64,000 bases of DNA from Amoebophrya sp. A120 (taxonomy: Eukaryota > Protista > Dinoflagellata). Where the stretch lies: positions 1,666,538-1,730,537 of the forward strand of contig CAJINV010000015.1 of assembly GCA_905178155.1 (NCBI GenBank), written 5' to 3'. The position numbers and the translations under genes are program-made. This document shows positions 25,401 to 63,300 of the stretch, piece after piece. The stretch's first letter is position 1. Each line of letters begins with the position of its first letter. The notes below the pieces were generated by a model. That model was not told the origin of the DNA, did no database searches, and was given only the letters and a program-made list of their open reading frames with translations.

Positions 25401-28400
25401 GTTTGTGACGCAAGTGATCACGAACGTGTTGGAGTTCTTGTGGAAAGAGCAAAACCAGAACCACGCATCCGCTCCGTCTATCGCAATCACGGTTCAACAA
25501 TTGATTATCCTCCTGGACGGGTTGTGCTTGCTGAAGAAAATCCTACCACACCTAGTGAATTCCGCGGAATTGGTATCGAAGAAAGAAACATTCGTATAGT
25601 GTAACTTTGTGATGCACAACATGCGCACTGATTGCGGCTGTCATGCTGGGCGTGCATTGTAAGGGAAACTCAAGTACTAGCGCGTTTTCACGTACTCGTA
25701 CCATCTGCGCATGACAGGTTTTCGCTCTGACTCCAGACAGATTTGTAATGCTGTTCTCCCGAAAAAGTTACACCTACAATCTTTTTTTTTGGATAATTGG
25801 CGCATTTGTCCACAAACGACAATTTCTGCAACTTAGCGTGGGGCATCCCCGATTGGGTCCCCTACATGGTGAGCACGCAGGAATTTTACACCCCCGGAGC
25901 GTACAACCAGGGAAGTAGCTCTGTCACGACCGCACCCTTGTCCGGCGAGCTGGTCGCGAAGACCCTTTTCCTGAGTCTATGCAAGAAAAAAACTGTGTAA
26001 GTGTAACTTTCTTTGAGGAACAGCATCACAGATTTGCTCTGCATGACAGAGAAAACCTCTCATGCGTAGCTAGTACGTGAAAACACTCACGAGAAGAACC
26101 TCTAACGCATGTCCAGCATGACAAGTGTAGGCGTTCTTGCGCATCCTCTACCTCTGCAACACAAATTTACACGCTACGCAGTTTTTTTCTTGGATAGAGT
26201 CTCAGCCCCCACCAATACACGACGGAATTAGATAAAGGACATGGTGGGGCGGCTTCCGGGGTACAACATCAATTGCAGCAGACGCAGGACTCTCCTCTGA
26301 TGCAGAAGCTCTTAGAAGTCGAGTCGCAGGCTTTGTTCGGAGTCTCGCCGGAGTACCAGGGGGTGAGTGCTGTGCGGTATTGGACGACGTTGCGGAAGTA
26401 CTTCTCTTCGAATAGTAATTCGACGAACTCTATCAAATGCAAAAATGTCTGGGTCTGGAAGAATGTGAACTTGTCATGCAGATTTTCCATGACCCTAGAG
26501 GTCTGGAATGCCGGGCCTAGCATAACAGAGTCTGTGAGGTCTCTTTCATGCCTATCCGGCATGAGAAACTCCCTCCCAACTTGGTCGAAAGTGGACAGCT
26601 TTTGACACTCATGCAACACAGATTTTTGCATGATTCGGATTTAGCATGACAATTTGCAATCTTCCAGACCCAGACACTTTTGCAATTCGACGAACTCCCT
26701 GTACTTGGCGATCTCGCAGATACTCGAACAGCGGAAGCAAACTGGTGAGATTTCCGGGCTCGGGGCGGATTTTTCTTCCTCCGGGGGGCGGGATCGGGAT
26801 GAAGAACATGAGGGACCGAGGTATACTAGGAAAGCAACACGCTTCTGCAGCTATGCAAAGAAACCAGTGAAGACATATCCTATCATCGCAATACTCACGT
26901 TCCTCTTATTGTGTCAAAAGGATTCGCATCAGTTATTACATTATTCAATCATGAATAAATTATATACCAGGTGGTGGCGCAACGACCCAGCTACGGATCC
27001 GATTCGCACCCTCCCAGCGCCTATCTCCACTGTGGATTACGAACAAGAAGCCTTCCCGTCGGAAGAGCAGCTTTTCGCGGATCTAGGAACGTATTATGAG
27101 GAGCAGCAGGCTATTTTGATGTCCATCATGATGTATCCTGTGCAAAAGTATCGTGCTCGCATTGCAATCATGCATTACGAATTTTTTTATTAAGGTAAAT
27201 CCGCACTAAAAATTTTATTTCTCCTGCTGAGGAAAGTTGTAATGCATTTATACGAGTGCGATACTTTTGCAATGCATATCATGGAGCAGCAGGAACGGGA
27301 TGAGCAGAGCGGGTTCCGCTACGACACAGGGGAATACGACTACGGATTCGGTGATGTTTATGGGAGTATCAGGTTTGAAATCGACAAAGTTGAAATAACT
27401 TGTAATGCATAAAATCGATACCAGCTAGAATCCCAATTTTCATGCGGCGCATGATAAATTTCGGCACCGTCTAAAAAATCCAGTTTGTCATGCTGTTTGG
27501 GGACAGAAGGCGTCTTGTGTCATGTTACTTTAGCAGCTCTATCGTAGACCCCAAACAGGCTGACAGTCGGCCTCACTTGCCGTCCCTGCAAGAGAGGCAC
27601 TCCATGCCTTGCAATTTCTGCGTGAGAAATTATTTCAACTTTGACGATTTTAATCCTGACGCTTCCATAATGTTTCCGCAATCATGGAGGCAACTACTCC
27701 TGGGGGAATGGAAGGGCAGCTGTCAGAAGACGAAGAAGACGGTGATGAAACGCTCTCCAGCATTTTCGCACGCCCCAGTCCGAAGAAGGAGGCATTTCAG
27801 CCGCCGGTGGCGCCACCTCCCGTGCAGCAGCAGGAACAATCAACAACGCGACGACGAGAACAACCTCTCCCCGAGACCCAACTCAGCACAGAAACTGACG
27901 CCAACCCGCAGAAGAAGCAAGACCCCTCAGTTCCGCTCGGCCGGCTGGGCGCGCTGGATTTGCCGAGCTTGAACCCGAACCAGAACAGGGGAAAAATGCT
28001 TGCTGGGGCAGAGGGAAGTGAGAAGAAGTCGAAAAAGGAAAAGGGATTATCGCGGGAGAGGTTGAAGCAGATTGGAATACCGCTGAATTTCCTGAAGCAA
28101 CAATCCGCAATTTCGAACCTGAACGTCGATGACTATTCCCATTTATGCTGCGCGATCGATGGAAAATTGATGGGGGAACCGGTCCGGTGTACTTTACCAG
28201 AGAAGAAGCATTTGGTATTTGAGAAGTCGGTGTTGGAGTTGTGGTTCAATCAGATGGGGAAGGTTTGTCCCATCACAGGGGATTTGATGGCCATGACCGA
28301 CTGCAAGCGGGATAAGCAGCTGGAATTGGAGATCAAGCAGTTCGCTTCGAAATGGAGGGAAGTAGCGGCAGCGGTTGGCGGTGCTGGCGGAAATCAGCAA

Positions 28401-30903: not shown

Positions 30904-33900
30904 ATGGGTGGGAAAAACAAGAACGAGCGGCGCAACGCCAATAAAAAGCAGACGGAGAAGAAAGACGACAAGAAGAAAAAGGATGAAAGCAGCAAGCCAA
31001 ACGACGAGAGGCTCACATCCGAAGAGCTTGGATTTGTCATCCGCACAGGGCCTGATGCGACGCATCGGAACGTGCATACGCTCGAGGTGGACGCTCGGAA
31101 CATTGTGATTCACGCCGGAAAACAGGAACTGCTGTATGACGCGATACTACGATGTAACTACGGCGTCAAGTACGGCCTCGTCGGGAGGAACGGGGTCGGA
31201 AAATCGACCTTACTGAGAGCGATCAGCGATCGAGATGGTATAGAAGTTCATGTTCATCTATCATCTTGAGCTGCAGGGAGCCGACTACAGGACAATTTGG
31301 TCCTGCTGTCACAAGTTTTACTTGGCGCATTTTCTTTTTCACAAAGAAGAAGAACGAGAACTCAACAGCATGATCGTTGGACCAGCAAGAAGAATTTTTT
31401 ATAAACTAAAAATTGCAGGTCGTGTTGCTATCCCCCCGCACATGTCTTTGATGCACGTGGAGCAGGAGATTGTCGGCTCTGAGGAAATATCAAATGCAAA
31501 AATGTCTGGGTCTGGAAGATTGCCAAGTTTGTCATGCATATTTTGAATAAACCCATGATGTCTGTGATGCACCATGCCCTAGCGTCACAGATTTTTAGAG
31601 GACTTTGCGATGGTTCTACCGCATGAGAAATGCCCTCTCCGCGTAAAAAGCACAAACTGGAGTCCTCTACTTGCTGGTCATGCAATACAAATTTTTTGGC
31701 TCAAGACTTCTTGTCTTGTGGCCCTTTTCCCACTTTAGAGACGGGGCCGCACCCCCGTGAGATCAATTCGTCCGGACTCATCGTGGAGATCAACCCCCGT
31801 GAGATCCAAGATCCGTAGAGGCACTCTGTAACAGGCATCAGGTGCGGCTGGTGAACCTTTTGACTCACACGTAGATTGTAGATTGTTTCTCTAAAAGAAA
31901 AATCAAAGCAAAAAAAATGAGTACACACTTGCCCTCCATCCGAAGCGCGCACGTGCGCAATGAAGCTTCGATGGTCCCAGCGGGCATAACGCCCGGTCTT
32001 ACTCGTTACTCCCTTCATCTGCCCTCGCCAGCCGTCCCCAATGGCGTTCGATTGTGGGGCCCTTGATCCCCACGTAGAAGCTCTTCGCGGGTTTCTTCTT
32101 GCCGGGTGGAAGACGGTGTGCGTCGGTTTTTTTTTGGCGGTCTGGGAGTTCCGTGTAGGTCTTTGTTCCTAGGGGCGCTTGTCGACGCCCTGCGGCGGAG
32201 CGGGCGATCGGGAGGACTCGACGCTACTTGTGGACGCCATCTCCGAGCTGTCGATAGTAGAGGAGTTCTGCCGCACATCTCCGCGTCACGAGGATGCCGC
32301 GCCCACTAGCGGATCGCCCTGCTGCGCTGGAGATCAGGGACTTTTTATTTATTGTTTTTCGTTTGTCTCACACTCTCACACACTCGAATACTTATGAAAA
32401 GATCATAGTACCAGACCCATATTTCCTTTTTTTCTTCGTTTGAGTTTGTCGCCCCTCCTAATCCTTTGGTCTGTGTTGTGGCAGCGGATTGTCCTCTGAC
32501 CCTTACGTAGCCTTATGGCAACCCCTTTCCATATGATTGATCTCAGGTTTTGTGTGGTAGCTGCGCTGGCAGCGCGTTTGTGCGGCTCTCTACTCCTGCG
32601 AGGTGCGACGTTTTCGATGCGGCTGGGCTTTGCGGATCCAAACTGCGCGGAGGTGGTGGTGGCGATGGCGGGTTGATTACGGTGCGGGAATTCGGGTCGC
32701 CAGCCCCGGGTCTCACAGAGTACTGAACGGTGCTTACCAGCTGGATAGACGAGTGAGGGGTGATTACTCGTAGGGGAGTTGTTTATGGCTCGCGGTCGTC
32801 TTTCTGTCGTCCTGGCGTCGTTCGTGGGGGTGTGGCGCGGGGGTGGAGCGATCCTCGACGAGCGGTGCGGTTGCGGCTTTGTCGCGTCGAGCGGAGCGGA
32901 GCGTCGCTGTGTCTCCTCGGCATCGTCTCTTCGTGGCCTGTCGTGCGTAGTCCTAGGTGGGGTCCCTATCCCGGCCATTGCAATAGGGCTTTTTGGTGGA
33001 CTGCTGGAGACCCCAGTCCAGTCGCATCGCGACGTTATTTTTCAGCTGCAGGAGACCCCAGCTATCCCTTTGCTCTGCCCAAGTCCCTCGTCTTTGTCTG
33101 TTCGTCGTGTTTTGCCTGGTTTACCGCTGGAAACGATGCCGTGCTTTTGGAATTCCGGTTTCGACCAGGACATGCAGCCACTCTAACGGTTTCACTCGGG
33201 TCCGACCCCCGTTAGAGCTTGACCCCATCCCCCCGAGGTCCTACCTGAGGTAGTGGTCGTAAAGGGGGTATAGTGGTTGAGGGGTAAATAAGGTCATGCA
33301 ATACAAATTTTTTTAGAATCACAGACCCAGACATATTTGCAATCCATAGAAAACCGTGCTCCAACACGTGCTAAAATCCTATTTAGAACGCGAGTATGCA
33401 TTGCAAAAGTATCGTACTACGTATAAATTGCATTACAAAATAAAATTTAGGCAAGAAGAAGAAGAAAAGCGGAACTTGTAATGCTGTTTTACCTTAGGAA
33501 GAAGATTTGTCATGCATATTCGCAATTAGTACCAGTACGAGTGTCGATGCTTTTGCAGTTCATAGCGGGTACCTTCTCGACTTGGAAAAGCAGTTCATCG
33601 AAGATAATGAGAAAGATATGGTTATGCTTTGCAAAAGTATCGTACTAGTATAAATCGCAATACAAATTTATTTCCTCAGCATGAGAAATGACATTTGTAA
33701 TGCGGTTTTAACTTGAGCTTGACACAAAAACTTGTAATGCCTAAATGCGATTAGTAGTACCAGCACGATTCTTTTGCAATGCATAATGGTCCACGGTGTC
33801 ACTATGATGGAGGTCTACGAGCGACTAGACGAGCTCCACTCCGAGGAAGCTGAGGTAAACGCTGCAAGAATTCTCGCCGGCTTGGGTTTCACCCACAAAA

Positions 33901-36900
33901 TGCAGAACCGGCCGACCAAGGAATTTTCCGGGGGATGGCGCATGCGGATCGCGTTAGCCGCGGCCTTGTTTAACGAGCCGGATTTGCTGTTACTGGATGA
34001 GCCGACAAATCATTTGGATGTGCACGCCATTACGTGGCTGGAAGAATTCCTGAACGAGTGGGAAAAGACCGTGATTATCGTCAGCCATGACCGGTCGTTC
34101 CTGAACGCCGTCACGCAGAACACGATTTTTGTGAAGAGGAAAAGATTGTGGTATACGAACTTTTTGTTTTTTATAGCGTCGTCCGAGATGCCCGGCTCTC
34201 AATGCAATCCGGTGCAGACAGTTTACCTCTAGGAAAATCAAGCAGTTCAAGAGCAGTTTCTGGCTCGCCTTGGTAGCTACTACAGTAACAGTACCGAAGA
34301 AGCTTGCGCCATATTGTTTTTTATAGCGGCGGCAAAAGCTTATTTTTGCGAAAATTAAAAAAAATATTGGGTGGCTTTATCGTGGGCCTCGCAGCCCAGC
34401 CGAATCAGCACGCTTCTGGACTCAGGACGGCGCAAGACCCACGCCAGCGCAGCGCTCACCCAGTTTGCTCTGCCGTGCTGCCGCAAAGTCAAACACAACA
34501 CACCACCGCAGCACCCCTTGCGGAAGGCGCGAAAGGTCGCGCCAACTTCAACGCCCGCACACGCCAGGGCGGGCATCGTGGGCAGGGAGCCGGGCCCGTC
34601 GTTGACCCCTTAATGGGCCAGTCCCGCCAGGTCTGCGCCGCTCCAAATTTCGTCGGGGCAGGCGGAGGCCCGGCAGGCGCGGCCGAATCTGGCCAAGCCA
34701 AAGGCACGGCGTGATATGGAATGGGCGAGCGCCTTGCGCCCCACCAGATGTCCCGGGGCCATGCTCCTGTGCCCCGGTCCGGCGGCATCATCGGGCGCAA
34801 TGCCCATCCCTGATTGCCCGGCGAGGTGCCGCAAAACCCCTCGGCCGCCGCCCACGACCCCTGCTCGGCCGACCGCAATTCCCCAATCGCGCGACACTCG
34901 CCCTGTTCAATCAGCCCCATTTCTGCAAAGCGGGCAAAAGCGTGGCTCCATCCCAGCCAAGGTGCCTGCGGTTTGGTTACACCTCCCAAGCCACCCCCTA
35001 GCGTGCCTCCGCCAATTCGCGGGATTCCTTGCAAGAACTGCCCGGCGGCATTTCGGATATCAATTTCGCGGAAAACAACCGCCCGGCGACACTGCCAGCA
35101 CGCTTGGAGGCTAGAGCACAAGCGCCGCAGCCCTGGGCAACACAGCGGGGCAGCCGGGCCCCCCTTTTTGCAGGTGGGGAACTTATCAAGCGGCCCGCGC
35201 AAGGGGGGCCCGACCGCGGCGCGCCGTGCCCTAGTGGCCCCACGCAGGTCGTTCCTCAACGCCGTCACGCAGAACACGATTTTTGTGAAGAGGAAAAGAT
35301 TATCCTGTGCAAAAGTACCGTACTCGTATAAATGCAAGTGTTGCATTACAAATCTTGTTGCGAAGCCAAATCAGCATGATAAATTCCATTTCTCTTGCTG
35401 AGGAAATTTGTAATGCATTTATACAAGTACGATACTTTTGCAATGCATAAAGATTGTGGTATACGAACTTTTTGTTCCATTTGGTATAGAGCTAGGAGAT
35501 GAAATTGAAACAGTCAGAGTTTTTGCAGCTTCTGGTAGGCCGCGTACTACGCTGAATCGCAGATGAGTCCGTACTATTCCATCTTTTCGGTGTACAAATG
35601 GAAATAATTTGTGTGCCTGAACAACAGTTTTTTACTCAAACCGCAGAACAAATAAAAAAATCAAAAAAGGTACTATGGCGGTAACTACGACACTTTCATC
35701 CGCGTGCGCGCCGAGCACCGGGCCAATCAGGAAGCGGTGGCGAAACAGCAGGAGCGGAAAAAGGCCCATTTAAAGCAGTTCATTGCCCGGTTCGGCCGCG
35801 GGCACAAAAAGATGGCCCGACAGGCGCAATCCAGGATGAAACTGCTGACAAAATTGCAGGAGGAAACTGTCGCCTGCGATATGGACGACCCGTATTTGAA
35901 GTTAGACTTCCCCGCCGCCCCGGAACTGCCCCCGCCGTGTATCTCGGTTCAAAACGCCGCTTTCAAATACCCGGGATCGGACCGAACGCTGTACAACAAA
36001 CTGAACTTCGGCGTGGATATGGACTCCCGAGTAGCGATCGTCGGGCCGAACGGAGCGGTATCCTGTGCAACAGTATCGTACTCGTACTAATTGCGCATAC
36101 GCATGACAAAGCTCTTTCCTATAGGTAAAACAGCATTACAAATTTATTTATAATGCTGAGCTAATTTGTCATGCGATTTATACTAGTACGATACTTTTGC
36201 AATACATAAGCGGGTAAGTCGACCTTTTTGAAGTTACTGGACGGGACGCTAGAGCTATCGTGAGAAAAAAGTGTTACAGTTACACACTCTGATGAGAGAC
36301 AAGCAAGACAGACAACCTCTGTCATGCAGGAAATGCTTGCCAACCTCATTTGTTTCGTGTTTTCCCTTGTCGTTTGCGCATCACAGGTTTTCTTTGCCAT
36401 GTAAAGCAGCTTTGTGATGCAGAAAGTCCACCACATCCGTAAGCGTAACTGTAGCACTTTTTTCCTGTGATAAGAGCCAACGGACGGACAGGTGAGTAGA
36501 CATCCGAAATTACAAATCGCGCGGTTCTATGCATTGCAAATATGATGTCTCGGTCTGGAAACTTCTGATGCAAGGAAGGGAAGAATACAGAGCACACTGT
36601 ACTAATGCGCTTCATCCCAGCATGACAAGTTTTTCCGTGCTGGTTCAGAGCTGCGTACTCCGCACGAGAAACTACGCTTTTGCATGTCAGACAAGAGGAG
36701 CTCTTCGCGGGCACGCAATACAGAGCTCAGAGTCAGGCCAGACTAGCATGACAAATCTCGCAATCTCCCAGAGGACCCAGACACACTCGCAGTTCATAGG
36801 TTCACGCAGCACCACTTGGAAATGATGAATGTGGATGAGGACGCGGTGACGCACATGCGAAGATTGGGAAATTTGAAGGAGGATGGGACATATGCATTGC

Positions 36901-48300: not shown

Positions 48301-51300
48301 CCTCGTATCAAATGCAAAAATGTCTGGGTCTGGAAGAATTCATGTTTGTCATGCTTGTCTGGCATGACTCTTAAATCTGTCATGCACGTTACCCAAGAGC
48401 TCCGTTTTTCTGTGATGCAGAGAGAAGCGCAGTTTGTCTTTGTCATGCAGACTAGGCTGCAACACCTAGGAGCTCAGAAACTTGTCATGCTGAGCCAGCA
48501 TGTGTAGCCTCATCATGAGACGCCACCCAGCATCACAAGTTTCCAGACCCAGACACTTTTATTTTTGATACCTCGAGTGGGGCGTGTTCCGGCCGCTGTC
48601 CCAGCGCTACCTGGCCGAGGATTACCAGTACGATGTTCTCAACCCAGTAACCAACGAGTCCAAGCAGATTTTCAATCGCAGCGCCTGGGCCACGACCCTG
48701 ATCGGCGATTTGGGGGACCTACCGATAGGGCATTTCTATCCTGAGTAAAAACGTCCCCACACGACCAGATTCAATATGGGAAATCTGCTAGACAAATTAG
48801 CCAGCTTTGGTGGTTTCGCATGACAAGTTTATTTTCCTCGTAGTGTACACCTATGCAGAAGTGCTACAGTGTGTGCGTGTTTGGTCCCCCCTGAGCGACG
48901 TGTGTGTGTGTGTTGGTCCACACCCAAGTCCGAAAAAACCTAGCCTCATAACAGCCGCGCCCTTATGGTATAGATCAACTGTTCGTCATAGAAGATCGGC
49001 GCTCAGATTGCTCTCGGGCTGGAGGAGGGAGTAGCGCGCAGCAGTCCGCTAAAGGGCACACTGCCAACATCATCATCATAAATCCTTTCCAACTACTTCA
49101 GAAGCATCACAGATCTAGCATATCATGCCGATTATAGCGCCACAAATTCCAAATTGAAATTACGACTAGAGAATGCTTCTCATGGGGCTCCGCATGAGAA
49201 ATGTTTTTCGCATGGAGATTTGCACGACAAATCTGGGGTGGGGACGTTTTTACACAGGATGACTTCCCCCAGTTCTTCTTTCTGGATTGGTTTGACGAGA
49301 AACTCACGTACGGAATTATGCACGAAAAAAACTGTGTAAGTGTAAATCTGTGATGCAGAAAATGCAAAACAGTTATACTTGTCATGCTCGACATGCGTGA
49401 TCGGCTCGCTTCCTATGTGTTTTCCCTTCCTATGTGCGCATCACAAGTTTTTCCTGTCATGGCAGAAAAACTTGTGATGCTGTTTTCCCAAAAGACTTAC
49501 ACTAACACAGTTTTTTTCGTGCATAGGAGTCCCGATTTTGAACGAGGACGGAAACACAGGAGCAGCTCATGGGCAGAGCGATACTAACGGGAACTCCAAT
49601 TCCTACGAGATCTTGTGGCCGTCCGTAGCGGATATCGGGCCGATCCTGTATTGTGTGCAAAAACGCTCCCACCCCATAGTCAAGTTGGTAAATCTGCAAC
49701 ACAAAGCTCCAAGTTTTGGGAGTTTTGCATGACAAGTTTCCATCTGTAGCGTAGTGCTGTTTAGCGCGAGAGCAGCCGGATGAGAAAGCGAGCTTCTCAT
49801 CCTGTTTACAACATTACAAAGTCCAAAACACGATGGGAAATCATGCCTCTCATGGAGATGCGCATTACAAATCTTCCTGTCATTGCACATTTGCATGACA
49901 ACTATGGGGTGGGGACGTTTTTACATAGGATATCCTGTTTCTCGCATTCATGGCCTCGATCGTCGGGTTAACTGAGACGCTGTTGACGTTTCAGAAAATT
50001 GCGTCCGAACTGAAGCTGATCGATAAAACAAGCTTGGTGCGTATGAGAGTGTCAGGATCGAGATCGTCAGAGTTGAAATAATTTGCGATGCTTAAAACCG
50101 ATACCAGTCCGAAGCCCACTTATCAAGCGGCGCATGATAAATTTTCCGAGCACCGGAATCCAATTTGTCATGCTGTTTGGGCACAGAAGACTGCTTTTGT
50201 CGTGCTAGTTTAGTAGCTCTATTTCAAACCCTAAACAGGCGCACAATCGGCGTCACTTGCCATCCCGGCAAGGCAGGCACTTCATGCCTTGCATTTTATG
50301 CATGACAAATCGTTTCATATACCAACCCCTGCCGTAGCCATTTTGGCTCAAGATCCTTAATATACCAACCCCTGCCGCATTGGCGGGGGGGATCCGCTGG
50401 GCCCAGTCACAATCTTCAACAGCGACCTAAATGTGAAAACATAAGAGGGGGAGCAATGCCGTAGATAGATTAGATCCTTCGTGATTCCTTTTATTTTGTC
50501 CTCAGATGCCACGCCGGCACCTCCCCCGAGTCTCTGCGTCTAAGAAGTAACTCCCGATCGTGGCGGGTCAGAGTCATTTTCTTCTCTTATTGTAGTCTCT
50601 AGCTCAAGCCTCGGCACCCCGTGTGCCTGGAGGCACGTGTACAAAAATGAATCAAAATGACCTGGCGGCGGCGCCTCGGGAAGAGCCCGACTTATCGCCT
50701 CGCACCCTCTCCAGAAGGCGGTAAGTATGTAAGTGGCTCGCGGGCTGCTCGCGACAGAGGAGAACTCGAGCCCCCGCGTTTTGAGAAGTCGCGACCCGAC
50801 CTACAGTGGCGCTTTCGCTGTTTTGCCCCTGCGTTGGTTGCTCCAGACAGGCCAGACGACGGAACCATATCGGGTCTGGAGTTCTGGAAAGGGTTACGGC
50901 CACCATGCTGCCGGTGGTTTAAGCAGCACGGGCCGGCAAAGACGAACGGGCGCCAGGTTTCGCGCGGATGCCCCCCAGCTCGCCCAAGCCAGTAGCAACA
51001 AGCTCAGTCGAGTCTTGTTCCCCAAGCACAATAGATGCGAGAAAGGGGCGCACAATAGATGCGAGCTCAGGGCTTGGCAGCGCTGGGGGAGATGGTCTTG
51101 GCCACGACGCGGGAGCCTTCCCTCCGTGGAATCGACAATGGGCCTGGCGTTGACGTTTTGCGCGTCTATCTTAGCTGCGCAGCGGCTCCATCGTCCGTCA
51201 CGTCCGCGCCTCGTTTGGGTCATGAGGTCATGATGTGCAGCTCCGTCGATTCATTCTCAGCTGCAACCTTTGCACTAGCCTCTGCCTGGCTCTCAGGTGC

Positions 51301-54300
51301 TTGGCTGTCAAAAGACAAAGGCGCTTTCATATTCTTACCGGAATTTCCTAAACCGCATCGCAGGCTGGTTTCGTGCCTGCGGTGTCCGTAAGATTCCGAA
51401 TAATATCTACTTTGTACGCATGGGACCAGCTGCAGGCTGCTGCTTCCTCATAGCAGTTAGCCTGGTCGGTCCCTGCACAGTTTGTGAGCACTATAAGTTG
51501 GATCGTTGGCGAACGTTAAACGTGCTCTGGTGGCGACAAGTGTGGACCGTTGGCGAACGTTAAACGGCCCAGCCGCATACTGCCGTGTGCGTAATTACAC
51601 TGGGGGGATTCAGGGTAGTACGGAGACGATGTTTTGCGGCATCACCCTGCAGCAAAAGGTGAATGAGCTGACCAGGAGTTTCCTGCTGGCGTGCTATTGC
51701 CCGCGCTCCCGTCGCCTTGAAACGCACCGCATCGCCCGCGCGGCGGATGCTCTTCTTCTCGATCTGCAAGACATGCATTACTCTGCCCGCACCTGGACGC
51801 CGTACTCCTGTGCGGACGTGGATTCCCATTTCCATGACCCCGATGACCCGGCGCGTTGCAATCTGGGGCACTTTGACACTCTGCAGGCTACTCGGGCTAG
51901 GTCGTTTCTGCAGGGCATTGTGGTACAGGAAGGCCTCAGCGAAGAGGCTGCTGCGGATCTACTTGCGGTGGTGGACGATAAAGCGTTGTGCATCCTGGCG
52001 CACAAAGACGATCTGGACAGCGGAAATCTGGCACGAATTTTCGCCACGCTCAAGCAGGTCACCGAGATAAACTCCAGGCATTGCCTGCAGTTCTTCTCAA
52101 AGTCCAAATTTGAAGTAATTGCGGGCTCACCCTACTGGGGCCCGGACGTGAGTTCCAGCAATCTGGCCAAAGTGTGGGAGCTGGCCGCCAAGCACTTGAA
52201 CCCGTTCTGTGTCACGCCGGTAGTCAGCCTGAAATGTAAGCTGGTCGGGTTTTTGTTCAACACGCACAGCTCCCAGGCCGACGTTCTCTACGGACAAATT
52301 TTGGCTAGGCTGAAGTGGAGCCGCATTGCTGCGGAACTTGTCTGCAAGTACTTGCGGTATGTGAATGGGGTGCAGCTGCGTACCATCCTGGTCTGGGCCT
52401 ACATCAGTTCCATTCTGCACTTACTCGTGGTCGGCGTGCGCATCTTCCCTGAATCGTACTGGCAGGAACTGCTGTTCCAGATGTCGTGGAGCATTGCGGA
52501 CATGGTTGGGCTTTCGGTGGAAACGACGAAGCACTACCTGGAGGCAAACTGCATCCCGCGGCACGACATACACAAGTTAATTTTTTCGAAGCAAATGCTG
52601 AACCTTACCGACCCCCGCTTGTTGGCCACGAAAATTTTGCGATGCGGCGCAGCAAAGTGGACGGCTATCAGTGGCACTGCCTCCGTCGCGGCCTACGCCA
52701 CTGCCCCCGTGCTGATGGGCGCGGACGACAAGGAGAAAGCACTGGGATTCAGTGCCGAGGGTCTAGTGACATTGCGGGAGATCCAAAAAGCAGACTTGTA
52801 CACACAGGATGTGTTGCGCGACGTTGTCGGGGATTCCGCGTTGTGCAAAAGCCTGGCGACTACTACCACCGATTCGGTGGACGCCGCAGGCAGCAATGCG
52901 TCTGCCCTGCCCAGCCTTTTCGTCAACAAGAGCTCCTCTCCTTCCGCAGCTGTCAGAGCCACTGTGCTGGTGCCCCTGCCCTCGGCGTCGGGCCGTCTCT
53001 CGTCCGCACTCAATCGCAACTACGACGCTCCTGTTACCCACGCTGCCCCGCCTGCGATTTGTAATGCCTCCGGCTGCTGCTTCTTTTTCCGCGAGAACGA
53101 CTGCGACCTCGCTGTTCTGTATAGAGGCAAGGCGGCCAAGACATACCACACTTCTGACCATGGCGAGTTCTCCTGCCCCAGCCTCCGCTCGGACGTGCGG
53201 TTTTTGTCTTGTGTGGTGCGTGCAATGGAGGATTGGCTGGGGGATTGTGCTGCCGGGCTATTGTCGACGCATCTGATTGTGGCCGGTGTATCGCTGTCGC
53301 CATCTCTGCGTAGCACTGCGATCCATCGTCTTTTCCGGAGCATGATTTGGCGATGGGCTCCGGGTCGGGTCAGCATTATTTATCATAAACGCGGCGGCGC
53401 ACTGTCTCCCATGATGTACTCGGAGGCCCAAGCTGTTTCTCATCGTTCCGACATTTTGGATCTACCAAACCGCGGTGCTGGTGTCGTCTGGCCGATCCGG
53501 ACACTCAGTCTGCCGTTTGACTTCAAGACCAACGATGAAAAACTCTCCTTGCAGCATTTCCGAAATCGGGTGAACGCGAGGTGCAAACCGAAAACCACGG
53601 CGGCAACCACGGGCGGTGGCACGCTGGGGGCTTCTAGCACCAATACTACGACGGGCGGCGAGACATTGGTGTCGGGGGCTGATCCCTCTACGGGGACGCA
53701 AAATACCGCGTGCGGTTTACCTATCCCGACGGTGGCGGACCCTATGCCGGTGGAAAACGTTACCTGCACCCAGCAGGCGCCTACTGGATCGGCTATGACT
53801 TTCCCGACCGCGCCACGGCCTGCCATGCCAGCTATTGCTGCGCCGCCGACCATGGACTCCCAACTTTCGAACACTGGTGAGCAGGTGCCACTTGTGACGT
53901 GCAAGCCCGCCACATCACTCCCTACCCAGTCCAGCCGCCGTGGTAAACAGGACACCGCCGCCGCCAATTCTACCAAGCGCGCGGTGACTACCAACGTTAC
54001 AGTCAGCCCGGAGGCCAAGTCGAGGAGAAAAGGCAAAAAAAATACCACAGGAACCGGCCGCAGCACTGTGGTGCCCCACGTCACTGCTACCCAGTGACTT
54101 TTCTCGGTATCGCCGTCTGCTTCCTCGGACCAGCGGATTTATCTGTTAGCTTCAGTGTGAAAACCAGAACAGAAAATTAATGCAACTCATGTCTGTGTAG
54201 CGATATAATGACTGCGTTTTGGTGTAATAGTTTCGCAGGTGCGCTTGTGTCTATTCCTGACTATGCATCGCGTAGTCTGTGCCTGTGGTTGGCGGGCCTA

Positions 54301-57300
54301 TATATTTACGCACCACGCGCTGACCTTGGCTGTGTAGTGACTGCGCCGCCACTCCGTTACAGCGCAAGGTTGTGGCTTCAGGAAAAGATCTGTTTTTTTG
54401 TCTATGACTGAGTCGCGCTCTGAGTAATCCTGGAGTGTGGACTGCCCTGATGTGTGAAGGCCTGCCTACGAAGACAGCTGAGATACAGAGGACATGACTC
54501 CTGCTTTCGTTGTTTGTCGTTTGTGTAGTTTCGTCAATTGCAGCACTTTCATCCGCAGACCTGCCCGCGAGCCTGCCTCTGGCGCTGTCTGCCTGCGCGC
54601 TACCATCGACCCGGTGTGGGCGTCTAGTTCTGCCTGCCCCCATCGACGGCGTCGGGTTTTGCTTACATCGCGCGATGCTATGCTGGTCGGAGCCGGTTCA
54701 TCCTGCCTCCCGCCGTTTATCACCGGAGCATCCTGGGTCGAGCGGAACTCGGCGACCATCTGGATGGGCAATTTATCCTCCCCGTGCATGCTTGTCGACC
54801 TGCTGCTGGTGTGGACCCCGGTATCATATTTGTGCTGCGCAAACAATGGGTGCCGCATGCGCCTTTCCGAGCGAAGCACGGCGTTCCCCCGGGTGCGTAT
54901 CACCAACTACTCGCGCACGCCATTCGACTTGCTGTTAGTCGCGATCCCTGTATCTAGATCTTGCTGCACAGTTAAGAGCGGACACTACTGCCTATTCGTA
55001 GTCTGTCATGCGCGGAGCACTTGCTGGACCTGACTTTTTACTTGGCCTGTTTTGCCGTTCCTGGTACTACACTGACACTTCGCGCTCGACATTTACTTCT
55101 ATTTATTTCTATAGGCCTTGGTCTTCTGTATTCCATTTGTGGCCGGGATCTCCGGAGCTTTGCATGCGCGCGCTCTTTGTATATTCTCGGACTGTTTGCA
55201 TTGGACCTGGTTCCTGTTTCGGGATTTGTATTTGTCGCCCTCTGTGGCCCCCCGATGTGCACTTACTACGCTGGTGGTTGCTGTTGCTTAGTGTCTTAGT
55301 CTGTTGTCTTGTCCTCCTTATCATTTTATTTTCGCTCCGACAAGCATGGCAATCTACTCCGCTTTGCATGTGTCCGCTCAATTTTTTAGTTTCCATACAG
55401 ACCCCGGGTAGTGCCGTCATTGCGACCTTCCCCCTACTGGACTCCACCTGTGGCTGCTGAACAAATCTTCTCCGCGTGGTGCCGCTGTTTAGTGATGGAT
55501 ACGCTATCGATGACGTCATGTTGGGCCCGAACATTGATTCCCGAGCACCCGACCGCCGATCTCCAGTACCCCGCCGGCGGCGAACAGATTCCCAGGCAGT
55601 GGGTCTCCGCCGTCTCGTCCGAGCCTGGGGCTCAACTCCCTCGCCATGTAGCCGGTTTGGGGCATTTCATGGCGTGTGCGACCGTTTTCCGGCGCAACAG
55701 CCTGTTTCGGATCCATGTTGTACATCACGCACGGGTAGATCGTTCCAACAGCGCACGATGACGACAAGGAAGACGACGAGCCGCATCAGCGAGCCACCGG
55801 CTTGATGAGGGTTCCTGCAGGCCCTACCAGCTGTCGCGTCCTTGGTTCGGTACCTCCTCCCCGCCGGTCCAAATTAAACCTGCTGGCACCGACTTCCGTG
55901 ATTAAGATCCTCCACGACCTACATCTTCCTGCTGCTACATACGCTGGCCGTGTCTCTAGATGGTTTTGCTCGTCCTCTTCGACTAGTAGCCAGGTTGGAG
56001 CTTTTCGTGGGGTGTGCGACCTTATTCCGGCGCAGTAGCCCGTTTGCGGATCCATGTTTTACATCATGAACGGGAGGTCGTTGCAGCAGTGCATGGAGAT
56101 GACGGGCAGCAACAGTCGTGAGCCACCGGCTTGTGGATTACTGCCGCCTACGGATCTCTCCTACTTGGCAAAAGTAAGGAGTGAAAGTTTAAAAGTTAAG
56201 AAGGTTCATTTTATTAATAAAGAATGTCAGTAAAGCGCTCTTGGTCTCTTGTGAAGTCCTCTGCGTTATCCTTTTATCTATATCGCGGCTTTATGGTGCT
56301 TAGCACCTGGGTCCTTGGCCGACCCGCTCGATGACTATCTACCCGCGCTGCAGGCTCGCTCCCCTGCATGCGTCCTTTGTGTGGACTACCTTGCTATTTG
56401 TGTATCGTAGCTCAAGCGTTCACTGTCTCGCAAAAATTACTCACAGCTTATCACTTACATGATAAAAGACGCTGCTTAATTCTAACTGCGTGTGTGCTCT
56501 TGCTTGTTTATTTTTTTTTTAGTTCTCTATGTCGGCTCGCGCCCCGGCTCCGATTCTGTCTTGATCTGTTTATTCCCGGCCCGCCTCCCGGATATAGTTT
56601 TTGTGCTTTGTCTCCTCGTGGCTCCACACCCACTGCATTTATGGCCCCTGCGACTGCCGACTTATTATTATTTTGGGTTCGCGTCCCCACTTTTGTCCTC
56701 CCCTCAGCCGTATCCATGCGTTTGGCGCGTGGTTACACAGGCCGGGATTGAGGCCTACTCTTATTGTATTGCTTGTATGTGGCGACTTGCATGACTCGGC
56801 GTCGCTTAGTCTTTTCTATCTGTCCGCCGCGTGTTACCTACTTCATGATGAGCTTATGTGGTGACTTTTCTTGCTGCTAGTGCATGACTCGCTGGTGATT
56901 CGTTGCCATGTGGATCTTGGCGTGCGCATTAATTCTAATTTTACTTCCTCACCGTCGCCTGAAAAAATGCAACTACGTATTTATTTGTTTCGGAGGCCCG
57001 CTTCCCTCCTATCTCTAGTTTCTTCAGCCGATCCGAAGGTAGTTTGTATGTGTGCCCTGGCTTTCCGATATGGAGCTCTGATTTGCATGCTAAGTCGGAA
57101 AGTCGCCTCATGCGCGGAGTTGCTTGAGGACACGTTGTATGATTTTGGGACCACGTACCTACTAGCCCGAGGGGGTGCGGGAGCCTGAAAAAACGAACGT
57201 TAAACGTATGTTGGCGATAAGTTGGACTGGTGGCGAAAGTAAGGTAAAGGCAGCGTAAGTAGTTGGATGTGCCCGGGGATGATGGTGATGGCTTCGGTCC

Positions 57301-60300
57301 GCCTGACTCCGCGACCTGGTGGCCGAACCACGTGCGGTTCGGTGCCCTTACAGGTTGTGTAGTGGTTTCGGTCGGTTTAGCATGACAAATCGTTTCAACT
57401 TTGGCGATTTCAAACCTGACGCTTCCATAGTGCAACCAGGAGCGGCGGGGCAGCACCCGCACCAGAACGGCGGCGGGGCCTCTTATGACACCCTCAGAAT
57501 GGAAATCCTCAAAGTGGAAATAATTTGTGATGCATGAAATGCGACACCAAAAAGACTGCATTGCAGATTGCAGAGAACGCAATGGAAGCCGACTATTGTG
57601 CATCTACGGGCTCAGACTTGGGCTCCTGATTAGCATGAGAGGAGGGCACCCCTTTGCCTAACTAGCATGACAGACACGTTTTGAGTGCCCGGGAAATTTG
57701 TCATGCGCCGACTACAAATGGTGCTCCAACTGGAGTCGTTTTTTTGCATTACAAATTATTTCCACTTTGAGGATTTCCAACCTGAGGCTTTCATACCTCT
57801 TTGGCTTCTAACGCAGGGCGAAGCGGAAAACATGGTGCTGGAACTACAGACTCTAACAGCAACGCATCTTCGCCAAGAGATCGCAAAATAACGACAGAGA
57901 AAGTTTTTCACTCGGAGGAGGCGGATCCGTTGCTGCGAGACGACCGGCTTTCGAGTTCAATAGGTACAAGCGGAGATTTTAATATCAACTACGATCATCA
58001 TTCTAACAACTACCAGGATATTGACATCAACGTGTCGAAAAGGAAAAGCGGCCAAGAAAATAAACAAGATTTGCCCGCCTCTCCCCCCTCCACCGAAGGA
58101 GATGTAGGTATCCGAACCCCGAAACTGCGCCTGAAATTTTCCTCCAAAATCCGGGTTGTATCCAGCTACCAGGAGCTCTTTGTGCAGGGCGTCGCGAACT
58201 TGGTTTGTGGGCTGTTTGGCAGCATGGGTGGGTGTGCGATGATTGGCCAATCACTGATTTGCGTCCGAAACGCAAGTGATGTGGAGATCCGGGAGTCTGT
58301 GATCGGGGCCGGGAACATTGGCAGACTGGCCCCGATCTTGGCGGCTTTGTTCACGTTTACCTTAACAATGTACCCGGTGGTGCTGTCTATCATCCCGGTT
58401 TCCGCTTTAGTCGGCGTCATGCTGGTATCCTCTGCAAAAGTATAGTACTCGTATATTAAATGCATTACAAATTTCCTGAGCATGAGAGATAAAATTTGTA
58501 ATGCTGATTTTTTAGCTTTGGAACAAGATTTGTAATGCTTGTTTGCAATCGAATCACTACGAGTACGATTCTTTTGCAGTGGATAGCTGGTCGTTTCCTA
58601 CCACACCATCGACTTTCGGTTTCTCCTATCAAATGCAAAAGTGTCTGGGTCTGGGAGATTGCGAGATTTGTCATGTTTGTCTGGTATGACCAAAGAGGTT
58701 GTGATGCGTGTCCAAGAAGAGACCCTTTTGCCTGTCATGCAAAAACGCAGTTTGTCATGCGAAAAACGCAACACAAAGAAGCGCACACATTTCTCATGCT
58801 TGGCTGCGCATTACAGAGCATTCACTATTCCCAACGCAGCATTACAAGTTTCCAGCCCCAGACATTTTTGCACTTGATATCTCCCCGCGGCTTGGAAAGC
58901 GGTTTTTTGGTCGGAGGAACAGAAGAAGAAACGGTTCGCTTTGGTGTATAACAAGGGAGGCCTTTTGGTGGAGGTAGAGGAAGCGGAGATGGAGCTCGCT
59001 CTGGCCGCGAGATCCTTCGTGACCGAGCGGATCCACGGGAAGGGAATCAACGAGGAAGAGCTTTTATTCGGAGAAGAGAAAGAAGACGAAGAGGCTCTTC
59101 ACAACTATATCGCAGCACAAGCGAAGAACAGTTCTTCTAAAAGCGCGAAGAAGAAAAAAAGAGGCAAAAAAGATTCCAAGTTCATCACGGTGCCCCGGGA
59201 AACCAACATGAAAAAAGACGACCCGGTTTTCTTTCCCAATTTTGACCCGGAGAACCCGAAGCTGCTCATCGATCCGGAGCATTTGACCGAAGAAGAGGAG
59301 TCACAGTTGCGAGAGGAGGACGCGATGCTTCACGCCAGCCTCCAACAGATGAAAAAAAAATCAGGCAGTTTCTTTCATCATGCCGACTTCGACCATGCTG
59401 GTGATGGGCATAAAACCCCCGGGATAAATAAAAGCCGAACGCCCTCGAAGATGTTGATAATGACCCCAATTAAGAAATCAGGCAGCAAGGAGCAGTATCC
59501 TGTGCAAAAGTATCGTACCTACGTAGAAATTGCCTTTATGCATTACATACAAATCTCTACTACTTTGTCATATGTAAAGCAGCATTACAAATTATGCTGG
59601 GCTAATTTCTTGTAATGCAACTTATTATACTAGTACGATGCTTTTGCATTGCATAAGCAGATGCAGAGCCCCTTTGCAGGTCATATTCATACACCAGCTT
59701 CCGTCGATCCCTTATCAATTGCAAAAGTGTCTGGGTCTGGAAATTTGTGATGCTAATTCATGAATTGTGGGGACACTGCTATAGGCAGCCACGCATGGCA
59801 AGTTTCTGGGCTCCTTTGTGTTTCGCTTTCCGCATGATAAACTACATTTTTGCATGACAGGCAGGAGGCTCTTTTCCTGCTCACGCATTACAGGTTTAAG
59901 AGTCATGCGAGACACGCATGACAAACTTGCGCCCTTCCAGACCCAGACATTTTTGCAGTTGATATCCCTTAATGGGGAGCAAAATCAGTTCTATATCGGG
60001 GAACCACACCGGCAGCAGCAAAGGCATATCCTGTGTAAAAACGTACCCACACCATAGTTGTAATGCAGATTTGCAAAGACAGGAAGACTTGTAATGCGCA
60101 TCCGCATGAGAGCCATTTCCAATCGTGTTTTGGAATTTGTGATGCTGTGAACAGGATGAGCAGATGCATCTGTGATGCGGCTGCACTTGCTAACCTGAAC
60201 TACGCTGCGGAGTGCAACTTGTCATGCGTGACTCACAAAACTCCTCGACTTGTGTTGCAAAATCCCCATCCTGACTCTGGTGTGGGTAGGTTTTTACTCA

Positions 60301-63300
60301 GGATAAGGCAGCAGCAATCATGATCATCACGATCAGTTTGAGTGCATCCAGAGACGGCGCGGCAGCCTCGAGCGCGTCGTGGTAGCGGCCTCGTCGCCTA
60401 GCGACCTTCAGTACGTGGGCGAGGACAATACCACTACACATCTGCATGCCCAGCATCATGGATTTACTCTTGGTAGTAGTCAGCATCTACTGTTGGGAGG
60501 CACGAGCAAGCGCACCAGTCAAGGAGAGGCTTCCCTGGTCGTGTCCAATCATTCGGTAGGGTCGAGGTCTAGTGTGCGGTCCGGGACGGGGCCGGGGACG
60601 AATGGCACACTATCAAATGCAAAAATGTCTGGGTGTGGAAACAACTTGTGATGCTGGGTGGCGTATCATGAGGAGGCCACAAGTGCTGGCTCAGCATGAC
60701 AAGTTTCTGAGCTTCTTGGTGTTGCCTATTCTGCATGACAAACTGCGTTTCTGTATGACAGAAAAATGCGGGTCTTGCGACGTAATGTGCATGACAAATT
60801 TAAGAGTCATGTGAGACAAGCATGACAAACTTGCATTCTTCCAGACCCAGACATTTTTGCACTTGATACACGCACTGCGACGACAAAACGACAACCATTC
60901 TCCCGATTCAGCTGGGGCTGGTTGCTATGAAAGCCTCAGGTTGGAAATCCTCAAAGTGGAAATTACTATCTATTATATTCATGCGAAAGTAGAGGTCTAC
61001 AGAGGGTCGAAGAGAGGTGGCCGAGAGGTAAAAAAGAGGTCGACAGAGGTCAAAAAGAGGTCGACAGAGGTGGAGAGGTGGCGCGGGAGGTCATTCGAGA
61101 GGGTGGCCGAGAGGGTGCGCGAGTATAGCCCGCCGAAGGGCTCGCCCTAAGGCCGCGCCTATAGGGACCAGAGGGGGCCGAGAGGGTCCAGAGAGGGCAA
61201 GCGAGAGGTGGACAGAGGTGCCGGGAGGTTGCGCGAATAAGGGCGAACCTCTCGCGCACCCTCTGGGCCACCTCTCGGCCACCTCTGTAGACCTCTACCG
61301 GCGACGAGTATAGCCGGATTATTAGCAACACCTCTCGGGAGAGGTCAAAAAGAGGGTCTGCGAGAGGGTCAGAAAACCCCGAATCCGCCCGGCACGCGGC
61401 CGGTTTTGTTTGGGCCTTTTCATCGCGCAGGCCCGCACCCTCTCGCGCTACCCTCTCGCGCACCCTCTCGCGCACCCTCTCGCGCCACCCTCTCGCGCCA
61501 CCCTCTCGCGCTACCCTCTCGCGCTACCCTCTCGCGCTCCCCTCTCGTGCCAACCATTTCCGTCGGGAAGCAAATAGGGCGGGGGCGGGATGGTGATCAA
61601 AATAGGGCAGCGCGGCCCCCGTTCTGCTTCCTTCGGCACCTATGTCGAGGTGGCTTCTCTTCGCCCCCAAGCTTCGTTGCAGTTGCTCCCTGCGCATAGC
61701 GCCAGCAGGCGCGGGAAGCGCGCAGGAGGCCGCGCGGGCTGACATGGCGCAAACCGGCGCCAGTAGTTCCCTCGGTCTGTCACGCTGTGCCCAAAGACCC
61801 GGCGCTGCGGTCCGACCCGCGCATTGTCCTGCCCCGCCACAACAGCCTTGCGCCCCGGCGGCAGCCGGGGCATGGCTGGTATTTTGTAATGCAAAAAAAC
61901 GACTCCAGTTGAAGCGGCGTTTGTAGTCGGCGCATGACAAATTTCCCGGGTACTACTTAAAGCACGTCTGTCATGCAGGTTAAGGCAAAGAGGTGCCCTT
62001 CTGTCATGCTCAGTTGTAGCACGACAATGAATTCTTCACCCCTAGCAGGACAGTAGTCGGCCTCCATTGCGTCCTCTGCAATACAGTGCTTTTTGTCGTC
62101 GCACTTCATGCATCACAAACCAGTTCCACTTTGAGGATTTCCATTCTGAGGCTTTCATAGTTGCGTCCGACCGAAATTCGGTGTCGACCGGCCCGCGGTC
62201 TCGAAATATCCTACGTAAAAACGTACCCACCCCATAGTCAAGATGGGGAATCGGCTAGACAAATCCACAAGCTTTGGCTGTTTCGCATGACAAATGTGGA
62301 CGCGTAGTGTAGTGCTGTTTGAGCTAGTTCAGCAGCATTACAGATCTAGTCTTTCATGCTGATTAGAGGATAACAAATTTCCGAACACCATTAGAAAATG
62401 CTTCTCATGGGGCTCCGCATGAGAAACATTTTAAGCATGCAGATTTGCATGACAACTATGGTGTGAGGACGTTTTTACACAGGATACGAAAAATCTCCTC
62501 CTTATCCCAGGACGTGGTAAAGTCGCACGACTCGCAGCTGCACCAGACGGGTTCAGCGGCTGTGGACAGTAGACACCGGAACAGTACAAGAACCATGATC
62601 AAGCGGGGAAACAAGAATAAACAAGTCGGTAGTGGTCCAGGTCCATCATACACCTCGACTCCCGAACAAGAGCAATTTTCACCTGCTGGCGGAGGTACTG
62701 ATGAGCAACTGGAGATGTTGAACAGCGACGATGAAGACGAAGTAGACACTCCCTCCGGAACGACAAGTACTAAGAATCGCAGTTATATCTTCAAGAATCC
62801 TCTGTACCACCGAGAAAGGCTGGGCACGATCGATTCGCAGCTAGGGTTGCCCGGATACTTCCCCCCCACCGCTGGTCGCGAGACAGCTACCTCCAGTACT
62901 ATGGGCGACGAACAAGAAGATGTTGAAGATTCTTTTTCTGAAGAGCAAAGAAACCACTTCTATGATTTGGAAATTTTGAATAACCGGGCGAATGAACACC
63001 TACACGATGGCGAGGCCGACACCTATGGGAGTGACAGGACCGAAATCGACAAAATCGAAAAGTTTCATTTTGTAATGCATAAAATGTAGGGCACGCATGC
63101 CCTGTGTTGGGGACGACCACGCAAATGAGACCGAGCGCAACAAGCCTGTTTAGGTGAAGTAGACGATGCGCTGCCAGAGTAGCATGACAGGAGCAGTCTG
63201 CTTTGCCCAAACAGCATGACAGATCGGATTTTGGTGCTCTCGAAATTTGTCTTGCGCCGCGTGGAGACTGAGGCTCGAACTGGTATCAATTTTATGCATC

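Follow-up and report, generated by a model that had tools for sequence, protein, structure and literature searches.

Background

Truncation at the 5' end, target duplications, A tails and an N-terminal APE endonuclease are described as standard in non-LTR elements (PMC2881922), and the L1 catalytic triad is given as D600/D702/D703 (PMC10830420). In PMC5585692, which also gives the dinoflagellate spliced leader considered here, the enzymes behind the DinoSL retrogenes of dinoflagellates are presumed to come from LINEs. According to PMC6482013, retroposition of genes is a rare event in Amoebophrya. The presence of non-LTR elements in this genus is mentioned in general terms, and some introners of strain A120 are attributed to them (PMC7789003, PMC12130899); most repeats of Amoebophrya genomes are listed as unclassified in PMC7789003, which also describes the type of inverted-repeat intron to which those found here belong.

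The window, i.e. the whole stretch of 64,000 nucleotides analysed, comes from Amoebophrya sp. A120 (contig CAJINV010000015.1, positions 1,666,538 to 1,730,537). Judged from its sequence, one of its open reading frames (ORFs) is a reverse transcriptase (RT), very probably the C-terminal half of a LINE endonuclease-RT protein. The evidence is reported below, along with the nested insertions in which the ORF is found.

The ORF and its relatives

The frame is open from stop to stop at 51497-54097 (866 aa), or for 822 aa when counted from the Met at 51629. A preliminary description of this DNA had placed an ORF at 51629..52620: the open frame is there, but its true end is at 54097, and the described interval corresponds to the first 330 residues of the ORF. 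GC content by codon position is coding-like (0.56/0.42/0.72 at 51629-52720), from about 51600 onwards, and flat upstream. The coding part and the region following it are organized as follows:

51563 to 54097, forward strand: coding remnant, ORF2-like C-terminal half; matches residues 892-1738 of relative P0001 (50% identity, 866 columns, E 0.0)
53057 to 53431, forward strand: C-terminal beta/alpha domain, possible degenerate RNase H-like fold
54098 to 57193, forward strand: 3' region after the stop, 3.1 kb, ending in A6

The remnant extends from RT motif B to the thumb, followed by the further beta/alpha domain and by a low-complexity tail. When the beta/alpha domain is compared by hhalign with 64 RNase HI proteins, the score is 17.6, against a null of 12.0 +/- 2.3 (one of 40 shuffles as high); window residues 470-610 may form an RNase H-like domain, which in LINE clades such as I, Ingi and Tad1 follows the thumb. 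The hmmsearch for RNase H is negative, the best E among the 18 relatives described below is 0.15, and catalytic acidic residues are not evident; neither the ESM Atlas (aa 400-660) nor the PDB features a match for this domain. The 3' region holds a 108-bp internal repeat (82%; 55648-55755 and 55986-56093), and none of the six frames of 54098-57379 matches a family, RT or APE profile.

Analyzed alone, the window protein has no match in Pfam, PADLOC, NCBIfam, PHROGs or PDB sequences: a search for homologues of similar or smaller length is empty, six start variants have no exact match, and no related loci are present in the viral and metagenome contigs searched. Two DNA patterns for LINE motifs have zero matches in viral contigs, and Rfam has none at 50200-57500. 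Among longer proteins, two relatives are found: P0001 (1,738 aa, 56% identical to the window protein) and P0002 (1,679 aa, 43%, from Amoebophrya sp. A120), both identities spanning 99% of window aa 1-657. A profile made from the RT region of these two and of the window retrieves 18 relatives, P0001 and P0002 included, from 1.84 billion proteins. Names were looked up for P0002 and ten others, P0001 and six others standing outside this count: all 11 relatives carrying a name are from Amoebophrya, and by proteome the ten are distributed as seven in AT5.2, two in A120 and one in A25. Paralogues in three strains lend indirect support to a dispersed multi-copy family. Every relative whose entry was looked up forms a singleton cluster, recorded on a single contig at the most. 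P0003 resembles a chimeric gene model, with a V-SNARE at its N-terminus; P0007, P0009 and P0016, which match the C-terminal stretch only, were excluded from the family alignments of RT motifs.

The relatives, up to 1,738 aa long, feature APE motifs together with motif A and the RT domains of the N-terminal side; only motif B onward is found in the window, and no CCHC knuckle pattern is present among eight long relatives. The literature found holds no description of the family; subscription papers were mostly outside the search, and the dataset files of PMC12130899 might list it. The putative LINE family is unnamed in public Amoebophrya proteomes and overlooked by standard annotation.

Affiliation to LINE reverse transcriptases

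Family members were compared with 15 LINE RTs, a narrow set, chosen by one motif pattern from 109 metagenome loci. From domain 0 to the thumb, the family aligns to them with an hhalign probability of 91.8 and a score of 63.5, against a null of 14.1 +/- 1.8 (0 of 20 column shuffles as high). The half present in the window, compared with the LINE segment from motif C to the end, scores 38.9, against 10.8 +/- 1.3 (0 of 20 shuffles), and P0003 matches the LINE profile with an E of 5e-5. The window alone is negative against the 15-LINE profile by hmmsearch --max, hhalign and glocal alignment, and the window half of a three-row family is not significant against LINE RTs. Pfam RVT_1 matches neither the window ORF nor the 13 relatives scanned, and the PDB sequence search returns no RT, even with a 16-row family profile. 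The top ESM Atlas matches of the window protein are RVT_1 clusters, at 0.87, a lead only. The two AlphaFold models have low confidence (pLDDT 35.3 and 41.6), and Foldseek and VIA, run on these low-confidence models, give no meaningful match.

An ordered-block test against the 15 LINE RTs, whose blocks were selected after the sequence had been viewed, gives the window a score of 19.0, reached by 0 of 500 shuffles and by one of 164 real non-RT proteins; two full-length relatives score only z 0.6-1.7. The RT-like blocks seen earlier in the ORF do follow one another in an order and at a spacing that beat chance, but the labels of motifs A, B and C given to them are not retained.

On the profile comparisons, the window family is a highly diverged APE-type LINE, with named relatives in Amoebophrya only. 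The idea of a very diverged RT that keeps its DD pair is supported as regards a diverged, non-LTR-type RT; the pair, however, would be VVDD and not HKDD.

RT motifs and the catalytic pair

The position of the RT motifs, as derived from the family alignment, is the following:

51602 to 51619, forward strand: RT motif B, GGIQGS; paired by hhalign with GVPQGS, Q in 9 of 11 rows; upstream of the Met from which the ORF was first described
51660 to 51950 (approximate), forward strand: family-specific insertion; holds ADVDSHF, GHFDTL and GIVVQEGLS
51968 to 51979, forward strand: RT motif C, VVDD (D116, D117); paired by hhalign with YADD, DD codons at 51974-51979
52001 to 52012, forward strand: HKDD, formerly proposed as motif C; not conserved (H125 in 6 of 15 rows, D127 in 6 of 15, D128 in 12 of 15)
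52082 to 52417, forward strand: RT motif D (FFSKSKFE), motif E (KLVGF) and start of the thumb; K160 in 14 of 15 rows, G207 in 15 of 15

D116 and D117 of AVVDD are each present in 15 of 15 rows, with YVDD, FVDD and CVDD among the relatives: they are likely to be the catalytic Asp pair. The preliminary description, which took HKDD as the equivalent of YADD, had named in advance the conservation of the catalytic pair among homologues as a check; across the 15 family rows, HKDD fails it, its two Asp being kept in 6 and 12 rows. The other peptides quoted there are found in place (GIVVQEGLS at 51914-51940, HKDD at 52001-52012, KLVGFLFN at 52238-52261), with different fates. CLQFFSKSK, KLVGFLFN and the later helices are borne out by the family alignment as motif D, motif E and thumb. 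ADVDSHF/GHFDTL, taken for an RT motif, and GIVVQEGLS, taken for motif B, both fall in the insertion that is specific to the family and separates motif B from motif C; Q100 of GIVVQEGLS is shared by 3 of 14 rows, and GGIQGS is the real motif B. A further candidate for motif A, LLLDL, was rejected, as D45 is found in only 7 of 15 rows. In the relatives the real motif A (e.g. ISEDICNYFN, ISLDLKQMFN) lies upstream, with its D in 9 of 9 rows, and it is absent from the window.

Motifs A to E of a non-LTR RT are present in order in the family, together with the Asp triad (motif A D 9/9, motif C DD 15/15); the window copy features B to E only, and is without motif A by truncation. An endonuclease-less RT with an HKDD active site does not correspond to these data on either count, as the HKDD pair is not kept and full-length members have an endonuclease.

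The spacing between motifs A and B is canonical (58-59 in the family, 57-60 in the references). From the Q of motif B to the first D of motif C, in contrast, 103-124 aa are found in 11 family rows, against 29-32 in the 15 reference LINE RTs: about 70-95 extra residues divide the two motifs in the family. So large an insertion in the RT palm would be a structural oddity. Internal duplication was considered as its source and rejected: the best pair is matched or beaten by 21 of 300 shuffles.

Endonuclease

Pfam Exo_endo_phos is found in P0014 (E 1.9e-6; 28.2 bits, cut-off 24.5) as well as in P0004 (E 4e-4) and P0013 (E 0.12), out of 11 relatives scanned; P0002 matches Exo_endo_phos_2 with an E of 0.017. 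The family scores 31.9 against APE by hhalign (3 references; null 14.1 +/- 2.5), and the top PDB matches of its profile, all weak (E 0.047-0.5), are EEP-fold proteins, namely exodeoxyribonucleases and a sphingomyelinase. The N-terminal motifs of P0001 and P0002 (WN, YxPP, GDFN, IDG, DH) are of the APE type; out of eight long relatives, five have a motif of the GDFN type. Given the Pfam and PDB matches and the APE-type motifs in full-length relatives, the family encodes its own N-terminal APE endonuclease.

The earlier remark that no endonuclease is visible is correct for the window copy, which has lost it together with its 5' half, but not for the family. The suggestion that nicks are borrowed from the introner machinery or from a partner element loses its ground, since full-length relatives encode their own APE. 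As to R2/CRE-type elements, no CCHC pattern is found in the 8 long relatives, and an APE is present instead. A candidate remnant of a restriction-like endonuclease, in frame 54628-54954, was discarded, having no Pfam match.

Nested insertions

The ORF lies within two insertions, one inside the other, in an introner:

51567 to 57193, forward strand: inner element, 5'-truncated LINE copy, 5,627 bp; CGAACGTTAAACG on both sides, A6 at 57188-57193
50318 to 51566, forward strand: outer insertion, left part; non-coding, dinoflagellate spliced leader at its head, flat codon GC
57207 to 57379, forward strand: outer insertion, right part; 57194-57240 is 80% identical to 51510-51560
50300 to 50317, forward strand: outer target-site duplication, 5' copy, GCATGACAAATCGTTTCA; 18-bp exact repeat, with only two copies in the window
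57380 to 57397, forward strand: outer target-site duplication, 3' copy, GCATGACAAATCGTTTCA; second of the two exact copies
50042 to 50317, no strand assigned: host introner-type repeat, left part; the right part is at 57398-57429

For the inner element, homology to P0001/P0002 begins at 51563 (tblastn). The 13-bp CGAACGTTAAACG is found at 51554-51566 and 57194-57206, the second copy right after A6, and the last four bases of the first copy lie within the first homologous codons. By itself the 13-mer does not exceed chance, as 30% of shuffles hold some repeated 13-mer; it carries weight because of its position, exactly on the homology boundary. The outer sides of the repeat are themselves related (57194-57240 and 51510-51560, 80% over 51 bp, E 6.6e-6), and no long terminal repeats appear in a self-comparison. 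The copy combines 5' truncation, a target duplication, an A-rich end and the absence of LTRs, as a LINE would, with the caveats of a short A6 tail and of a long 3' region (3.1 kb).

The inner insertion site is a short degenerate 41-44-nt repeat of the outer element (51493-51566, 57194-57250); the restoration of a tandem array on removal of the inner element was considered, and TRF called none. No family, RT or APE profile matches 50318-51566. RT-like words in the upstream frames 51059-51388 and 51279-51560 were rejected, on the basis of flat codon GC and of the lack of family or RT profile matches.

Because motif A is missing and the catalytic triad is incomplete, the window copy is likely inactive; a protein starting from Met 51629, without motif A and the QG of motif B, is also predicted to be inactive. 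The still-open frame suggests that the insertion is recent.

The outer insertion carries the exact spliced leader CCGTAGCCATTTTGGCTCAAG at 50332-50352 (0 matches in 100 shuffles) and has no A-tail at its 3' end. The leader is flanked by TATACCAACCCCTGCCG, at 50318 and 50361 (50318-50377), which shares CCG with the leader start; the TATACCAACCCCTGCCG repeat could derive from a template slip at the cap end. The segment 50318-57379 interrupts one inverted-repeat intron of the window. In the empty-site paralogues at 18557-18246, 27359-27672 and 16895-16577, left and right flanks are contiguous, with one 18-mer site. The flanking exons resemble an anion transporter (weak Pfam matches, MFS_MOT1 E 0.004, Sulfate_transp E 0.22).

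A second leader-headed insertion is found at 31676-33313: it is about 1.6 kb long, starts with TTTTGGCTCAAG at 31694, features a 22-bp flanking repeat, GGTCATGCAATACAAATTTTTT, and lies within the introner motif, sharing only the leader with the 7-kb insertion. Both sit at the introner motif GCA[TA][GT]ACAAAT. Elsewhere in the window, at 34096-35458, an ABC-transporter gene contains a GC-rich insert of 1.1 kb with a duplication on either side (an exact match over 44 bp, about 75 bp overall), of which only the downstream copy has an introner. A 13-bp tandem array, ACCCTCTCGCGCT (8.7 copies, 61424-61564), lies in another stretch that is GC-rich and devoid of introners.

The exact 21-nt dinoflagellate leader is also present in 119 IMG/VR stretches, for the most part from contigs of giant viruses; it usually follows directly on DNA that is AT-rich and promoter-like, and a contig often holds several copies. 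Among the literature titles searched, none concerns this leader in viral contigs. Three of the 119 (L047, L049, L067) are short GC-rich viral contigs of 3.8-5.3 kb, with the leader near one end and long ORFs: they are possibly dinoflagellate RNA viruses or transcripts.

Origin of the locus and alternative explanations

The ORF is very probably the C-terminal half of a diverged Amoebophrya LINE endonuclease-RT protein, in a 5'-truncated, likely inactive copy. In the mechanism proposed, the APE of an intact element would nick the target; the RT, with the Asp of motif A and VVDD, would prime cDNA on the 3' end of the RNA, at A6; and cDNA synthesis would halt inside the RT gene. The 5' end would then be joined through a 4-nt overlap, AACG, common to the end of the duplication and to the homologous NG codons (microhomology), and gap filling would yield the 13-bp duplication. 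The target would be a 1.4-kb, spliced-leader-headed, non-coding retroposon, itself located in an introner with an 18-bp duplication; this leader-headed outer piece would have been mobilised in trans.

The events may also have occurred in a different order, and the best explanation is departed from in this respect only: the truncated LINE would have landed earlier in the 1.4-kb element, at another place, and the composite 7.06-kb unit (50318-57379) would have been retroposed whole, in trans, from an RNA capped by the spliced leader. In agreement with this order of events, one 18-bp duplication encloses the entire unit, the exact leader is at its 5' end, all parts have a common orientation and the ORF is still open. 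Yet no second composite copy is known, the outer 3' end is without an A-tail, and two successive insertions explain the same sequence. This order of events is held to be unlikely. A definitely smaller probability is given to a domesticated or immobile, LINE-derived host gene family, of which the window would hold a processed retrocopy. The divergence is extreme, the looked-up relatives are each a cluster of one with no more than one contig on record, and the 8 long relatives feature no CCHC knuckle; but each genome has many diverged paralogues (a single strain's proteome accounts for seven of the ten looked up), many relatives are fragments, as fits decaying mobile copies, and the catalytic residues of APE and RT are kept.

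Two other readings concern the active site. If motif C fell on LLACYCP, which has no Asp pair, and VVDD were a primer-grip motif, the family would encode an endonuclease with a dead RT. This register was picked by the first hhalign, and with three sequences it ties with the VVDD register (motif C to thumb, z 1.9-2.3 against 2.0-2.3; motif E to thumb, z 3.3-3.9 against 2.5-3.1). With 16 rows, however, VVDD is invariant, several relatives have YVDD or FVDD, the ACYCP segment varies, and in the hhalign alignment an insertion is opened and AVVDD is paired with YADD: a dead RT is highly improbable. Hardly any credit is left to the reading of the preliminary description, i.e. a complete, endonuclease-less RT with an HKDD pair, receiving its nicks from the introner-mobilising enzyme or from a partner element. 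By eye, the spacing of LLLDL..VQEG..HKDD is near-canonical, the two closest relatives retain the complete HxDD Asp pair, and the copy does lie inside an introner. Against it, these residues decay in the wider family (H 6/15, D127 6/15, D45 7/15, Q100 3/14), and the relatives carry both their own APE and a real motif A, upstream, which the window lacks.

With the truncated LINE copy as the preferred reading, the HKDD active site and the borrowed endonuclease lose their novelty, while a LINE family missed by annotation comes to light, which is a candidate RT for the spliced-leader-tagged retrocopies of Amoebophrya. Because a LINE fragment is nested in a leader-headed retroposon, and this in an introner, retroposition is later than introner spread at this site. 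A wider picture may be drawn, although it is rather doubtful: an undescribed, Amoebophrya-restricted LINE clade, with a 70-95-residue palm subdomain and perhaps a dead RNase H-like domain, missed by RVT_1, which recopies leader-capped RNAs and favours the inverted repeats of introners.

Comparison with known systems

As in APE-type LINEs (L1, I, CR1/L2, RTE), APE, RT domains 0-7 and thumb are found in one protein of the family, with motif A as D-x4-F-[ND], motif B as QG, motif C as xVDD, and motifs D and E; the window copy has the 5' truncation, target-site duplication and A-rich end listed for such elements in PMC2881922. Unlike them, the family has motif B set apart from motif C by 70-95 additional residues, and shows no match to RVT_1; CCHC is lacking in 8 long relatives, the spacer and tail are Pro/Ala/Thr-rich, and the 3' region extends for 3.1 kb.

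The outer 1.4-kb insertion and the second, 1.6-kb one begin with the spliced leader, like the DinoSL-relic retrogenes, but the inserts are non-coding as tested, their target duplications are intact, and they lie inside introners. The interrupted host repeat is, like the Amoebophrya introners already reported (Farhat et al. 2021, PMC7789003; PNAS 2025, PMC12130899), an intron with inverted repeats. The introner is here the target of insertion, and no sign is seen that the LINE mobilises introners.
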